A stretch of 64,000 nucleotides of DNA from an uncultured Candidatus Babeliaceae bacterium (lineage in GTDB: Bacteria; Babelota; Babeliae; Babelales; Babelaceae), in the NCBI GenBank assembly GCA_963704655.1, contig OY969927.1, forward strand, positions 96,001 through 160,000, read 5' to 3'. The position numbers and the translations under genes are program-made. The number at the start of each line of letters is the position of its first letter. Positions within the stretch are counted from its first letter, which is position 1. A model generated the notes under the pieces. That model was given only the letters and a program-made list of their open reading frames with translations. It had not been told where the DNA came from and searched no databases. Of the stretch, positions 24,320-28,831 are shown piece after piece.

Positions 24320-25293
24320 CTACAATATCACACACCCGTCATCAGAAACATTTTGATAAATGGGCGCATGCGGATTTTCTTGGTGTGCTATTTGAATTAA
24401 GACATTTTGAATTCTACGGTATTCCCTTGAATCGTTGTTAACAGAGTATCGCGCTTTATCATAGAATTTACGCGCGTTAATAAAATCTTTTGTTTGATGA
24501 GCTATAACTGCTCCTAATAGAATATCTGGATACTCAGATACTTGGGTTATTTGTTGAGGGAAATAGGTTGATGCTAACGTTGCGTCAGCCTTAAAGATCT
24601 TATAAGGGTTGCTTTTTTCAGGATAATGAAGATAAGTTTTGGAGTTTTCTGGATATGCAAATTGAGCTGCCATAATAGATAACGTAGTAGTACCCCCTTT
24701 AATTTTTTGTAGCCCAATCATCGTAAATGCTAATGCTTTTAATGGTTCCTTTTCTTGTAAATATTGATTTGCTTGATTTATATAAAGCTGCTGCAGATTA
24801 AAGTCTTTTTCCAAGAGCTTGCGAAATATTGGCAGAGAATGGTCATCACTGGTTTGAGGATTTTCATGATATATCTCTTGATAGGTATCAGTTGCATTTT
24901 GGCACTTTAATCTGCTTGCTTGAATTAAATAGTGCTTGCCCAAAACCTTATGCCTGTCAGAACAGTTTCTATCGTCAGGCAGCTCAGGAGCAGGCGCGTT
25001 TACACTTTCACTACACGTGTTGATAATCGTCTTGCAAGCCAAAATGATGCGTTGCCATCATCTTCATAGGCTGTTGCAACGGTTGCCATAGCCCATCTTT
25101 TAAGGTGGTCATGTTTTTTGTTTTCGGCATACGTGAGCATTTCTTTTGCATTACTAGATGCTAAAGCTGCAAGAAAATCGTTTTCAGCGTATGGTGGTGG
25201 GTTTTCGGCAAGAGCAAGTTTTGTTTCTTCAGTTGCATGAACAGTAAAACTTGTTAAAGCACTTAATAAGCCAATAAAAAATATCTTTTTCAT
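24320..25293 (-). pseudogene. Frameshifted paralogue of 25382..26461 (PPxY / Sel1-like / CaaX protein)
   Basis: ORFs 25000..25305 and 24320..25042 align end to end with the neighbour; a 1-nt deletion near 25026 (CGA-CTT-ATC to CGA-TT-ATC); ends CVIL*. May be a sequencing error. Confidence 0.7.
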
Positions 25294-25381
25294 AATACTC
25301 TCCAAAAAGTTAATGTAAAAATAATCTACAGGATACTAGCATAAGATTATACGGTAAAAAATATCTCGATTATACAGTGAT

Positions 25382-26461
25382 CTATAATAGTACACACCGT
25401 TTATTAGGAGCATTTTGATAAATGGGTGCATTCGGATTTTCTTGTTGTCCTATTTGAACCAAGATTTTTTCAATTCTACGACGCTCGCTGGGGTGTTGAT
25501 CGTTAGAATTTTGATAAATGGGTGCATTCGGATTTTCTTGTTGTCCTATTTGAACCAAGATTTTTTCAATTCTACGACGCTCGCTGGAGTGTTGATCGTT
25601 AGAGACAGCAGCTTGCCTATAAAATTTACCTGCAGTATCAAAGTCATTTATTTTATGGGCTATAGCTGCTGCCAGCAGAACTTCAGGATACCAAGCTATT
25701 TTTTTGTTATTAAAGGGGAAATAGGTTGATGCTAATTTTGCATCACACTCAAATATTTTATAAGGCGCGCTTGTTGCATCATAACCATGGCGGTAATAGT
25801 GATAATAACTTTCCAATTGAGCGGGATATGCAAATCGAGCTGCCATAATAGATAACGCAGCAGGATCACCTTTAGTTTTTTGCAGCCCAATCATCGTAAA
25901 TGCTAATGCTTTTAAAGGTTCATTTTCTTGTAAATATTGATTTGCTTGATTTATATAAAGCTGCTGGTGATCAAAATCTTTTTCTATGAGCATGCGAAAT
26001 ATTCCTAGGGAACGGTCACGGCTGGTTGGTGGATTTTCATGATATATCTCTTGATACGCTGCAGTTGCTTCTTTGCACTTCAATCTACTTGCTTGAACTA
26101 AATAGTGCTTGCCTAAAGAATTAAGCTTGTCAGAAGAATTGCTATCCTTAGCCAGCTCAGGTGCGTTTACACTCGCACTACATCTTTTGATAAGTCGTTG
26201 TGCAAGCCAAAATGATGCTTCGCCACGCTTTTCATAGGCCGTTGCAATGACTTTCATAGCCCATCTTTTAAGGTGGTCATGTTTTTTATTTTCGGCATAA
26301 GAAAGCATTCCATCTACATTTTTAGATGCGAAAGCCGCAAGAAAATCATTTTCAGCGTATGGGGGTGGGTTATCAGCAAGGGCGAGTTTTGTTTCATCAG
26401 TTGCATGAACAGTAAACCCTGTTAAAGCACCTAGTAAGCCAATAAAAAATATTTTTTTCAT
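25382..26461 (-). CDS. Exported helical-repeat protein with PPxY motif and C-terminal CaaX box
   Basis: Signal peptide ...FTVHA; NPPPY; ends KRCVLL*. Confidence 0.8.
   Translation of the reverse strand: MKKIFFIGLLGALTGFTVHATDETKLALADNPPPYAENDFLAAFASKNVDGMLSYAENKKHDHLKRWAMKVIATAYEKRGEASFWLAQRLIKRCSASVNAPELAKDSNSSDKLNSLGKHYLVQASRLKCKEATAAYQEIYHENPPTSRDRSLGIFRMLIEKDFDHQQLYINQANQYLQENEPLKALAFTMIGLQKTKGDPAALSIMAARFAYPAQLESYYHYYRHGYDATSAPYKIFECDAKLASTYFPFNNKKIAWYPEVLLAAAIAHKINDFDTAGKFYRQAAVSNDQHSSERRRIEKILVQIGQQENPNAPIYQNSNDQHPSERRRIEKILVQIGQQENPNAPIYQNAPNKRCVLL
25412..25603. repeat. 2 x 96-bp in-frame tandem duplication
   Basis: 25412-25507 vs 25508-25603 differ at one base; encodes NDQH(S/P)SERRRIEKILVQIGQQENPNAPIYQN twice. 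Confidence 0.95.
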
Positions 26462-26580
26462 ATTTTCTCCAAAAAGTTAATGTAGAAATAATCTCCAGGA
26501 CTTTAGCATAAGATTTTTGAGAATACAAAGATCTCTTTTCAGGTTCTAAGGCGCTAATCTAATAATATTTTATGAAAATT

Positions 26581-26796
26581 TTACAGTGTAATTTCAATTT
26601 TACCATTACAACACCAGCAGAATAAATCGTAGCATATCAAAAAAGTTGAGGCTTGAGGTTGCATGCGGATGGGTATATCTTTTTTTGTTTGTATACCATG
26701 TAGTAATACGAAAGTCTGTTGGGCTGAAATTGTATTGTCTTGCATACTAAATAATGGTGTATAAACCATGAATAAGATGGGTAGTATTTTTTTCAT
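26581..26796 (-). CDS. Small exported protein with Cys-rich C-terminus
   Basis: AAGGA RBS; MKKILPILFMVYTPLFS signal peptide; CYDLFCWCC. Confidence 0.6.
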   Translation of the reverse strand: MKKILPILFMVYTPLFSMQDNTISAQQTFVLLHGIQTKKDIPIRMQPQASTFLICYDLFCWCCNGKIEITL

Positions 26797-26855
26797 ATAG
26801 TCCTTTATCATAATTACCAGCAACAACATAAGCATTTACCTACTTGACTATGTCT

Positions 26856-27767
26856 TTATTCAAAGATACTCGCAAGTGAATTCCACAGTAATAGGCCAAG
26901 TGAAGAGTCAGCTTTTTGAGGTTCAACACATTTTTCTATTGCAGCGGTAAGCTGCTGTTGAGTATCTTCAGGCAAACCACGCAAGCGTGCAACATCTGCA
27001 TAGTGGTGCGCGATCATTTTATTTTTTTTAAATATTTTTTGATGCTCTTCCTGCGTTATCATAAATTCAGCCAATGCTTGTGCGCCTAAAGGCGAATCTG
27101 GAAATTTATGATACGCATAGCAAAAAACGGCTAATGCACGCAACGGGTCAGGCTGGAGCCCCGTTTTGGTTCCGCGTAATAAATCTAAACCCGCTTGGTG
27201 AAGTTCTTGCGCTCCGTGCAAATTTTTACTCGTGCATACTAAATCCACTAAAAATTTACTCGAAGGGTTTTCAACGGCTACTTGTGCCAGCGCTTCCTGC
27301 TCTGTGATATTTTTGCCGGTTAATTTTTGTAGTTTTTTTAAAGTATTATTTTGGTGATTATATTTTATTGCAGTGCATAAATATATACTTGCCCTATTTT
27401 GAGATAACGTTGTTTTCTCTATTAAGTCATGCTCGGTTAATTTGTCTGCAAGATCAACGCATGCTTTGGTATCGTTACAATCAGTTGCGATTTGCAAAAG
27501 TGCAAAAGCCATAAGAGGTTCTTGGCTGATGCCACTAATGCCTTGAAAATATGCATGAGCGCGCAGCTGCATGAGTCCCGTATTCTTTTTTGGTAGTGGG
27601 TCAAGGAAAAAATCGTGTGGTATTTTTTGTGCAGGGCTGATACTTGAGCTTGATGGATGTTGCACGTATGGTTCAGAATAATCAGGTGGCGCATAGGTAT
27701 ACTTTGCTTCATCAAAGCAATAGAGTTGTAAAGATATTCCTAATAAACCTAGTATTACTTTTTTCAT
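26856..27767 (-). CDS. Exported Sel1-like repeat protein with PPxY motif
   Basis: AGGAGG RBS; signal peptide; APPDY; Sel1-like segments (YFQGISGISQEPLMAFALL; LRGTKTGLQPDPLRALAVF). Confidence 0.75.
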   Translation of the reverse strand: MKKVILGLLGISLQLYCFDEAKYTYAPPDYSEPYVQHPSSSSISPAQKIPHDFFLDPLPKKNTGLMQLRAHAYFQGISGISQEPLMAFALLQIATDCNDTKACVDLADKLTEHDLIEKTTLSQNRASIYLCTAIKYNHQNNTLKKLQKLTGKNITEQEALAQVAVENPSSKFLVDLVCTSKNLHGAQELHQAGLDLLRGTKTGLQPDPLRALAVFCYAYHKFPDSPLGAQALAEFMITQEEHQKIFKKNKMIAHHYADVARLRGLPEDTQQQLTAAIEKCVEPQKADSSLGLLLWNSLASIFE

Positions 27768-27865
27768 GTACCCTCCTTAACTCATATCACGAAGTAAAGG
27801 TTACCGTGTGCAGCAAAAAAAAGGCAAGAATACGGTATCAGGTCATTCAGTAGGGTAAAAAATCT

Positions 27866-28831
27866 CTATAGTATCTGGCAGCATACGGGATCGTATTGAT
27901 GCAATTGTTTTTGAATATCTTTATTTACTTGCTGTGCCCATGTATCGCGTGGATCTTTTTCTAAGGCTGTCGAAATAGATTTTTTTGCTGCATCCAGTTC
28001 TTTTAAATCATTTTGAATTGCGGCAAGCCATGTGTAACTATTGGCATTTCCTATTAATGCTGCGCATTTTAATGCAAATTTTTTTGCGATTGTACTATCT
28101 TTTTTGACAATTTTTTGGGGCCAGATATCTGTTCCACCAAAAGCAAATTTCATCAATAATTCAGGTCCATAATACTTTTGTGGATAAGTTTTTTCTAATA
28201 ATGTTGCAATTGCCAAGCCTCTTATAGGCTGCGGATTAACGCTATCTGTTCCTTTAAATAAAGCTCTAGCGAATTCATATAATTGTTTTGATGTATAGGA
28301 ATCTCTATTTTTTACTATTTCCGCAAATACACTCGCCTGGAAATCCCTCGATGGTTCTATCTTGTGTTCACTGGTTCGATTGTAAGTTGTTATATAATCA
28401 AGGGCGTTATTGTTGTTTAAAGACGCCGCATGGGCAATATAGGCAAGTGCTAACGTTGAAGTATCTTTATGTGCAATATTTTCACTGAGAGTTTCTGCAA
28501 TTTTCCATGATGCAGATCCATCTGTTTCAAAGGCAGTTGCAAGGGAAAGTAATCCAAGGCAATAGAAAATATTTTGAGGTATAGTTCCAGTCCGATCACC
28601 ATCGTTATAGATGCCGGCAACACGAATCATATTTTCTACGTTGCCGGCATTAAATGGCTTGAGAAAAAAATCCCGTTCTTGTTGTTCTATGAGCTCTGCA
28701 GGGTTAAGTGTCTGATGATTAGATGAAGGTGCAGTATAGGCCGGCGGTGGGTCGTTAGAGATAAGTTTTTGAGTTTCTGCAGCAGTAACGAATGAAAAAA
28801 AGCATAACAATAATAAAGTAATTTTGTGCAT
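27866..28831 (-). CDS. Exported Sel1/TPR-like protein with PPxY motif and C-terminal CaaX box
   Basis: Signal peptide; DPPPAY; Sel1/TPR-like segments; ends CCQIL*. Confidence 0.75.
   Translation of the reverse strand: MHKITLLLLCFFSFVTAAETQKLISNDPPPAYTAPSSNHQTLNPAELIEQQERDFFLKPFNAGNVENMIRVAGIYNDGDRTGTIPQNIFYCLGLLSLATAFETDGSASWKIAETLSENIAHKDTSTLALAYIAHAASLNNNNALDYITTYNRTSEHKIEPSRDFQASVFAEIVKNRDSYTSKQLYEFARALFKGTDSVNPQPIRGLAIATLLEKTYPQKYYGPELLMKFAFGGTDIWPQKIVKKDSTIAKKFALKCAALIGNANSYTWLAAIQNDLKELDAAKKSISTALEKDPRDTWAQQVNKDIQKQLHQYDPVCCQIL

Follow-up and report, generated by a model that had tools for sequence, protein, structure and literature searches.

A genus-restricted bacterial family pairing a PPxY motif behind a Sec-type leader with a CaaX-like or amphipathic C-terminus

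We analysed a stretch of 64,000 nucleotides from the genome of an uncultured Candidatus Babeliaceae bacterium (assembly GCA_963704655.1, contig OY969927.1, positions 96,001 to 160,000; henceforth the window), in which four co-oriented paralogous genes occupy 24320-28831 on the minus strand. Their products combine a putative Sec-type leader, a PPxY (PY) motif just behind it, a helical-repeat body and a C-terminus that is either a CaaX box or an amphipathic helix. This arrangement had been read from the letters alone in an initial annotation, and its observation is confirmed: the open reading frames (ORFs) of the window place PPAY, PPDY, PPPY and PPPY behind the four leaders, three genes end in a CaaX box with X=L (CQIL, CVLL and CVIL), and the model of the remaining protein shows a C-terminal helix. 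The interpretation attached to it, membrane-anchored adaptors that recruit host Nedd4-type ligases, is partly supported. We consider it an evenly balanced question whether the proteins are Sec-exported, host-directed, lipid-anchored adaptors that present the PY motif to a WW-domain protein of the host. An effector that mimics a CaaX protein is of a kind already known; this family is unusual in its Sec leader and in its conserved PY motif.

The first paralogue (27866..28831; minus strand, as for all features of the locus) encodes 321 residues, with a hydrophobic leader in its first 18 residues, PPAY at residues 29-32 (28736..28747) in a disordered linker behind the leader, a core of 14 repeat helices at residues 44-313 and the end CCQIL, in which a second Cys stands directly ahead of the CQIL box (27869..27880). 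Paralogue 2 (26856..27767, 303 residues) has a leader, PPDY at residues 27-30 (27678-27689) and the same repeat core and is without a CaaX box; its C-terminus reads LLLWNSLASIFE, and a linker separates the core from an amphipathic C-terminal helix at residues 288-303 (26859..26906). Paralogue 3 (25382..26461, 359 residues) carries a leader, PPPY at residues 32-35 (26357-26368) and the end RCVLL, with CVLL at 25385-25396. These three genes are intact. The fourth (24320..25305), which had been counted as a gene like the others, is made up of two overlapping ORFs (25000-25305, 101 residues, and 24320-25042, 240 residues), with PPPY at 25189-25200 and CVIL at 24323-24334 in the end GCVIL. Its frame is broken near 25026/25027, where it has one base fewer than paralogue 3. 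An assembly slip can be dismissed as the cause, for run X3 of another study has a contig that crosses the break with the same sequence (24923-25183, 0 differences); run X2, which belongs to a third study, has one that likewise shows 0 differences over 24997-25147 and reaches just 30 letters to one side of the break. Copies 3 and 4 are 63% identical in their aligned part, and all other pairs of window copies are 21-33% identical.

Paralogue 3 also contains a tandem duplication of 96 bp (25412..25603, 2.0 copies, 98% matches), which doubles a 32-residue stretch holding ENPNAPIYQN directly upstream of the CaaX box. This stretch occurs twice in copy 3 and once in copy 4, and its APIY is PY-like (xPxY), so that copies 3 and 4 may carry two or three PY motifs, weak or strong. 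Runs of three studies (a marine, a soil and a lake-water metagenome) contain contigs that match 24250-26500 with 0-1 differences; near-identical strains therefore seem to be widespread, or common to several data sets.

Homologues were sought by several routes. Among 41 related genomes, a single-protein search returned a fifth paralogue in the same genome (1227222-1228145, 307 residues, with a leader, no PPxY and the end CAVL) and a homologue in a congeneric genome (30% identical, 322 residues, with a leader, PPAY and the end CVIL). Run against 261 genomes of the same order, a profile placed the family in four of the six genomes of one genus, counting the present genome (G000), and gave a single match outside the genus, which is weak (E 4.6e-5) and on inspection has neither motif. 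Of 20 matches at E<=0.001 in a profile search of 1.84 billion representative proteins, seven were fragments of this genome's own genes, and two further alignment-based protein searches returned three proteins each, mostly fragments from the window itself. Related-locus searches with single proteins or with a four-row alignment gave little, among it one 3.5-kb metagenome contig, and a contig search with the 321-residue copy as sole query found no related locus among genome contigs. Pooled, the family comprises 19 distinct genes at ~20-40% identity, each of which comes either from metagenomes or from a single genus with ~1-Mb genomes. Judged by these sequences, it is genus-restricted and fast-evolving.

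Both motifs persist in homologues at 20-40% identity, as had been claimed for the four diverged copies of the window. A strict PPxY is found behind the leader in 11 of the 19 genes, within 6-37 residues of the start and with A, D, P, S or C at x, and a twelfth PY gene (P0014) carries leader and LPAY in an adjacent frame upstream of a frameshift. At the other end, 12 of the 18 genes with a C-terminus have a Cys at position -4 (CVIL three times, CVLL and CTIL twice each, and CQIL, CAVL, CVVS, CVIQ and CIVQ), and another four have a hydrophobic or amphipathic tail in place of a CaaX box, all of them keeping PPxY. Loss of the terminal Cys or of PPxY from homologues had been named beforehand as the finding that would speak against the proposal, and these counts do not refute it. 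The surroundings of the motifs vary: the linker from leader to first helix measures ~6 to 40 residues and can be aligned only at the motif, and the residues ahead of the terminal Cys are also variable. Ancestry alone would not fix two four-residue patterns at such identity, so both appear to be under selection. Moreover, X ranges over L, S and Q with the position of the Cys fixed, as expected for a working CaaX box and not for an inherited fixed string. With VIL, VLL, QIL, AVL, TIL, VVS, VIQ and IVQ behind the Cys, the a1 and a2 residues are of aliphatic type and X is of the kinds that FTase or GGTase-I accepts.

The pairing of the two motifs stands out in the genome as a whole, which is a single contig of 1,298,077 bp with 38% G+C and 1285 non-overlapping ORFs of at least 80 residues. 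PPxY is found 15 times, where composition predicts 21.6, and lies within the first 60 residues of six ORFs, four of which belong to this family; no ORF outside the family has both an N-terminal PPxY and a Cys at -4. Position -4 has the highest Cys count of all the last 60 positions, with 31 of the 1285 ORFs (the other 59 positions have a mean of 17.1, a standard deviation of 4.0 and a maximum of 26; Poisson p = 0.0015), and 13 ORFs have exact CaaX-like ends compared with a mean of 4.2 at shifted offsets. The genome-wide count that the initial annotation had suggested thus bears out the pairing as unique to the family, without a general enrichment of PPxY and with a weak case for a CaaX strategy beyond the family.

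The fold of the proteins was modelled with AlphaFold2. From an alignment of 16 sequences, copy 1 gave a predicted local distance difference test (pLDDT) value of 88.3 and a predicted template modelling score of 0.82, with 14 helices spanning residues 44-313; in blocks over residues 1-40 the mean pLDDT is 46-58, and at the tail, with the CQIL box in the last residues, it drops to 66 and then to 46. Copy 2 (pLDDT 86.7) has the same core, its PPDY lies in a disordered stretch (49-55 over residues 21-40), its leader forms a predicted helix (residues 2-22), and a further helix, separate from the core, is predicted at the C-terminus (residues 288-302, pLDDT 64-68). In the models, PPxY and the last ~8 residues are located in low-confidence flexible ends, the usual setting of short linear motifs.

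The repeats had been called Sel1-like, a description that would apply at most to the fold. Of 16 members, 4 are matched by tetratricopeptide repeat (TPR) families of Pfam (best E 1.5e-5), whereas Pfam Sel1 (PF08238) matches none of the 16 at E<=1 and none of five window ORFs at E<=0.1. Foldseek ranks Sel1-like repeat (SLR) proteins first (c5321, an Oxalobacter SLR protein and HcpC), with a TM of only ~0.33 for these top three, followed by Legionella LpnE and LceB; the entries 6deh, 8sxq and 1ouv of the LpnE/LceB/HcpC group have E values of 6e-4 to 5e-3. Protein Atlas feature matches fall in Sel1/TPR clusters (0.91-0.92). Against the PDB, the family profile matches a consensus TPR (E 5e-9) at profile positions 231-285, a sequence match limited to the C-terminal third. 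VIA-align superimposes the C-terminal half on three-TPR domains, reaching a Z of 11.6 for OGT (root-mean-square deviation 1.7 A over 118 residues), where Z values below ~13 are common for helical repeats; the EEVD-binding three-TPR domains of HOP, CHIP and Sgt2 score 10.5-10.9, within that common range. By sequence matches and models together, the body is a TPR-class protein-binding solenoid. Like the family with its putative leaders, Legionella LpnE and LceB and Helicobacter HcpC are leader-bearing helical-repeat proteins of host-associated bacteria, but their TM to it is only ~0.3, and the family, without a Pfam Sel1 match, is closer to canonical TPR. These three proteins are not known to carry PPxY or CaaX.

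The C-termini without a CaaX box are informative about the role of those that have one. The tail of copy 2 has a hydrophobic moment of 0.42 and a mean hydrophobicity of 0.48; with its orthologues in P0010, P0013 and P0016 it forms a set of four non-CaaX tails with hydrophobic moments of 0.40-0.53 and positive mean hydrophobicity. That all four CaaX-less proteins of this subfamily have a hydrophobic or amphipathic tail suggests that selection maintains a membrane anchor at the C-terminus, be it of one kind or the other. This swap of a CaaX box for an amphipathic tail in one subfamily, read from sequence and model, is the strongest internal argument and points to a C-terminal membrane anchor.

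An anchor of the CaaX type would depend on prenylation by the host. No prenyltransferase-beta domain (PF00432) was found in the genome, which is scored 96% complete; likewise, no WW (PF00397) or HECT (PF00632) domain was found in it, a weak blank in that none was found in 14 control genomes either. Without WW, HECT or prenyltransferase-beta domains of its own, any partner of the motifs would have to be the host's. Salmonella SifA and GtgE are reportedly CaaX effectors that the host prenylates. An X of L directs geranylgeranylation, whereas S or Q at this position directs farnesylation. That hosts prenylate bacterial CaaX effectors is established, in the accessible part of PMC13081727, for the Legionella Pels and AnkB, and phenotypes in amoeba infection are reported there for PelC, PelE and LegG1. 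As far as the sources were available, the likeness to the Legionella Pel/CMP proteins and AnkB and to Salmonella SifA/GtgE lies in a C-terminal CaaX box, host prenylation and anchoring on the cytosolic face of host membranes; for the present family, prenylation is a prediction. These effectors differ in that they are injected by a type IV (T4SS) or type III secretion system (T3SS) and have no Sec leader, whereas the family has a Sec-type leader and a genome in which none of three injection-system markers was found; moreover, a PY motif is not described for them in the accessible portions of the literature consulted, and no sequence relationship to the family was detected.

A further question is how leader-bearing proteins could serve outside the bacterium. 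In the four window copies, the signal peptide that had been noted is seen by eye as one or two basic residues, a hydrophobic stretch of 12-16 residues and an A-x-A-like end. For copies with a Cys near the end of the leader (LYC/FDE and LNC/FDG), a lipoprotein reading was rejected, as Y or N before the Cys is unlike a lipobox. By its gene content the bacterium resembles an obligate intracellular energy parasite: its genome has two loci for TLC ATP/ADP translocases and ten matches to ankyrin-repeat genes, seven of them above the Pfam cut-off, features that match the picture of Dependentiae, with tiny genomes and dependence on host ATP, in the available text of PMC6561590. On these grounds its phylum is taken to be Dependentiae-like. 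For a cultured parasite of that group, the same text gives signal peptides in 44% of coding sequences, secreted HAD hydrolases and vesicles budding during infection. Two secretins and two ATPases of the type II secretion system/type IV pilus kind are also encoded here.

Several results weigh against host-directed, lipid-anchored adaptors. The leader calls rest on inspection and on a crude, over-permissive script that flagged 658 of the 1285 ORFs, and are to be read as heuristic. Markers of the T4SS (VirB4 family, PF03135; other Dot/Icm parts were not searched), the T3SS (FHIPEP, PF00771) and the type VI secretion system (T6SS; VipB, PF05943) were not found in the genome, which is scored 96% complete, and exit from the bacterium would presumably take a secretin-dependent route or vesicles. 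Canonical PY motifs are lacking in seven of the 19 genes (one of these has VPTY), and 6 of the 18 C-termini lack a Cys at -4; P0018, which is possibly truncated, has neither motif. Four of the 13 CaaX-like ends of the genome belong to the family itself, and two of the control offsets reach 10 and 11, so a general CaaX strategy for this genome is not established. Finally, the copies that are broken, namely paralogue 4, two genes of the congeneric genome G004 and P0019 of G003, which is interrupted by a TGA, suggest that the family may be decaying in part. In P0019 (L011, 1451-2517, minus strand), the eight codons past the TGA are in frame and end in CPLM, followed by a stop.

The same results bear on a reading in which the proteins act inside the bacterium, as envelope or periplasmic TPR/SLR proteins (for example an assembly or chaperone scaffold), with PPxY and Cys used for disulfides, sorting or partner binding and eukaryote-like by resemblance alone. 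The Sec-type leaders, the negative searches for all three injection markers and the genes without one or the other motif favour such a role, and many bacterial TPR/SLR proteins are periplasmic, with HcpC, AlgK, TadD and YbgF among the fold matches. By contrast, the Cys stays fixed in position with X ranging over L, S and Q, the alternative amphipathic helix suits membrane anchoring and not disulfide chemistry, and PPxY is no general signal behind leaders, as just two other ORFs have it in their first 60 residues. Restriction to one genus would also be unusual for envelope housekeeping. No bacterial system is known to recognise a C-a-a-X box at the very C-terminus. On this evidence a purely bacterial role is unlikely.

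Within the preferred reading of host-directed adaptors, the partner of PPxY would be a WW domain, and the strict P-P-x-Y pattern with a free x fits the consensus of class-I WW ligands. An NPxY endocytic motif in NPPPY was considered and rejected, the Asn being one residue too far from the Tyr. We also weighed that the proteins are host-directed and prenylated with a PPxY that is no WW ligand and serves instead as an export recognition element, as a host tyrosine phosphorylation site or as a ligand of another proline-binding module. Two observations fit this: the motif always lies 5-15 residues past the predicted cleavage site, a position potentially relevant to export, and a sibling ORF on metagenome contig L007 has a leader and PPSY on a different body, so that the motif travels with the leader. 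The fit to the WW consensus speaks against it, and the existence of other leader-bearing ORFs without the motif argues against a general export signal; we regard this explanation as improbable.

The accessible text of PMC3673628, a survey of 44 taxa, reports ligases of the C2-WW-HECT type from Opisthokonta and Apusozoa only and no Amoebozoa clade in the Nedd4-like group. As hosts of Dependentiae, the available part of PMC6561590 names only amoebae and a nanoflagellate. This distribution tells against the adaptor reading in general and is in keeping with a PPxY that does not act through WW ligases. It bears most directly on the specific target put forward in the initial annotation, namely that Nedd4/Rsp5-type HECT ligases and, via them, ESCRT are recruited to the vacuole or plasma membrane. 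Though contained in the favoured reading, this target fared poorly. For it, one can cite that Ndfip-type adaptors and the late domains of viral matrix proteins follow the plan of PPxY plus a lipid anchor, that PY motifs bind WW domains of the NEDD4 family (PMC12720080 and PMC12707686, in their available text), that copies 3 and 4 have the extra xPxY-like APIY, doubled in one of them by a recent duplication, and that multiple PY motifs raise avidity in NDFIP2 (PMC12720080, accessible part). Against it stand the reported distribution of the Nedd4-like group and the single PY motif of most family members, and we would give the proposal little chance as stated.

The mechanism we favour would proceed as follows. 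The leader would take the protein across the inner membrane and then be cleaved, as the A-x-A-like ends suggest (for instance VHA/TDE and VTA/AET). After exit from the bacterium, the protein might meet host prenyltransferases by secretin-dependent release, should the bacterium lie free in the cytosol, by way of vesicles or through a leaky vacuole. In the host cytosol, the CaaX box would be prenylated by host enzymes, and in the subfamily without this box the amphipathic C-terminal helix would serve as the anchor. The outcome would be a membrane-tethered, TPR-class scaffold whose flexible N-terminal arm offers PPxY to a class-I WW domain, and whose repeat domain may hold a second host protein, as in an adaptor.

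A more specific form of this proposal is that the proteins mimic Ndfip-type adaptors or viral late domains, such that a Sec-exported, host-prenylated protein uses its PY motif to bring a WW ubiquitin ligase, or another WW protein, to a target held by the TPR body; this we consider conceivable, with the balance of probability clearly against it. Ndfip1/2, TMEM127 and the alpha-arrestins resemble the family as proposed here: they are associated with membranes, offer PPxY or LPxY to WW domains and link a ligase with its cargo (PMC12720080, in its accessible part, and PMC2515105). These eukaryotic adaptors have transmembrane helices or an arrestin fold and often several PY motifs, whereas the family is bacterial, with a TPR-class body, a predicted lipid or amphipathic anchor and usually one PY motif. 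The matrix proteins of viruses would resemble it in that a short PPxY on a flexible arm recruits NEDD4-family ligases to a membrane-bound protein (PMC12707686, available text). They act in the budding of enveloped viruses, and no role in budding is implied for the family. In the familiar cases, viral late-domain matrix proteins are anchored at the N-terminus. Among bacterial proteins, Salmonella SteD and Ehrlichia TRP32 use host WW-HECT ligases. SteD has no PY motif of its own and borrows that of TMEM127 (PMC12720080, accessible part), and TRP32 is without a canonical PPxY, in contrast to the canonical PPxY found here. In the open-access literature we found no bacterial family with a conserved canonical PPxY, and nothing that pairs Dependentiae with CaaX boxes or prenylation.

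A CaaX signal on Sec-leader proteins of a minimal-genome parasite, paired with a canonical PPxY, is an unusual combination. If the motifs function, they would provide a testable handle on host manipulation by a poorly known group of parasites and raise the question of how Sec-exported proteins get to the host cytosol. Should the proteins indeed mimic PY adaptors, ubiquitin-dependent sorting or membrane remodelling around the parasite would be rewired, the family would be the first of conserved canonical PPxY ligands in bacteria, and parasites without T3SS, T4SS or T6SS would still get motif-bearing effectors into the host cytosol. Small and soluble, the proteins are amenable to work in yeast or Dictyostelium without culture of the bacterium.

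Exported paralogues with leaders surround the locus as an array, and three of them have matches to HAD-like hydrolase families. On one side it is flanked by a leader-bearing HAD-like hydrolase gene from outside the family (23362..24201, minus strand; Pfam HAD_2, E 3.7e-5), which has a counterpart at the loci of the congeneric genomes G002, G003 and G004. On the other side, also on the minus strand, are two exported paralogues at 28931-29779 and 29788-30699, with Pfam HAD_2 and Hydrolase matches, and a third at 30725-31546 without a Pfam match at E<=0.1; by inspection, ORFs resembling those of 28931-31546 adjoin family genes in G003 and G004. Three other genomes of the genus share the order of a membrane protein gene, a HAD gene, one to four family copies and further HAD genes. 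Searched by sequence against the PDB, one flanking HAD-like protein gave nothing at E<=0.01, and scans of the locus for promoters and terminators stayed at or below the expectation from shuffled sequence.

CILF, CFFI (in a NAGPA-domain protein) and CSVI are the ends of further ORFs with leaders in this genome. A second leader-bearing family (897814-898668 and three genes at 1219183-1221262; L021 and L022) has an invariant Cys at -4 in its four copies in this genome (CSIM, CPLQ, CTQQ and CRQS); the Cys is kept in one of three homologues in G003 and G004 (CRVQ), that is, in five of seven members overall, and one copy adjoins an ankyrin-repeat gene. With boxes that are mostly not aliphatic, the sequences leave the status of this second family as CaaX proteins ambiguous. 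The PPSY-bearing ORF on contig L007 (2865-3392, plus strand; 166-175 residues), a metagenome contig that also carries P0006 and P0010, has a low-complexity middle and a C-terminal string of ~17 cysteines (SCC...CCC...CCKDK) in a body unrelated to the family. Here too PPxY is combined with what may be a lipid-anchor tail; Pfam families do not match the ORF, and the present genome shows no clear homologue of it.

Elsewhere in the window, rpoB and the region downstream (5577-14100, plus strand) are broken into many short ORFs, and gyrB (48200-50582, minus strand) is split into ORFs of 481 and 330 residues at ~49137-49192, a site that is not a homopolymer. Either assembly indel errors or something unusual could underlie this fragmentation; the family locus itself matched contigs of other runs base for base. 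A 2017-residue ORF at 56407-62460 (plus strand) has as its sole Pfam match a C-terminal Peptidase_S74 domain at residues 1893-1944, the intramolecular chaperone of endosialidase, and looks like a giant fibre-like surface protein.

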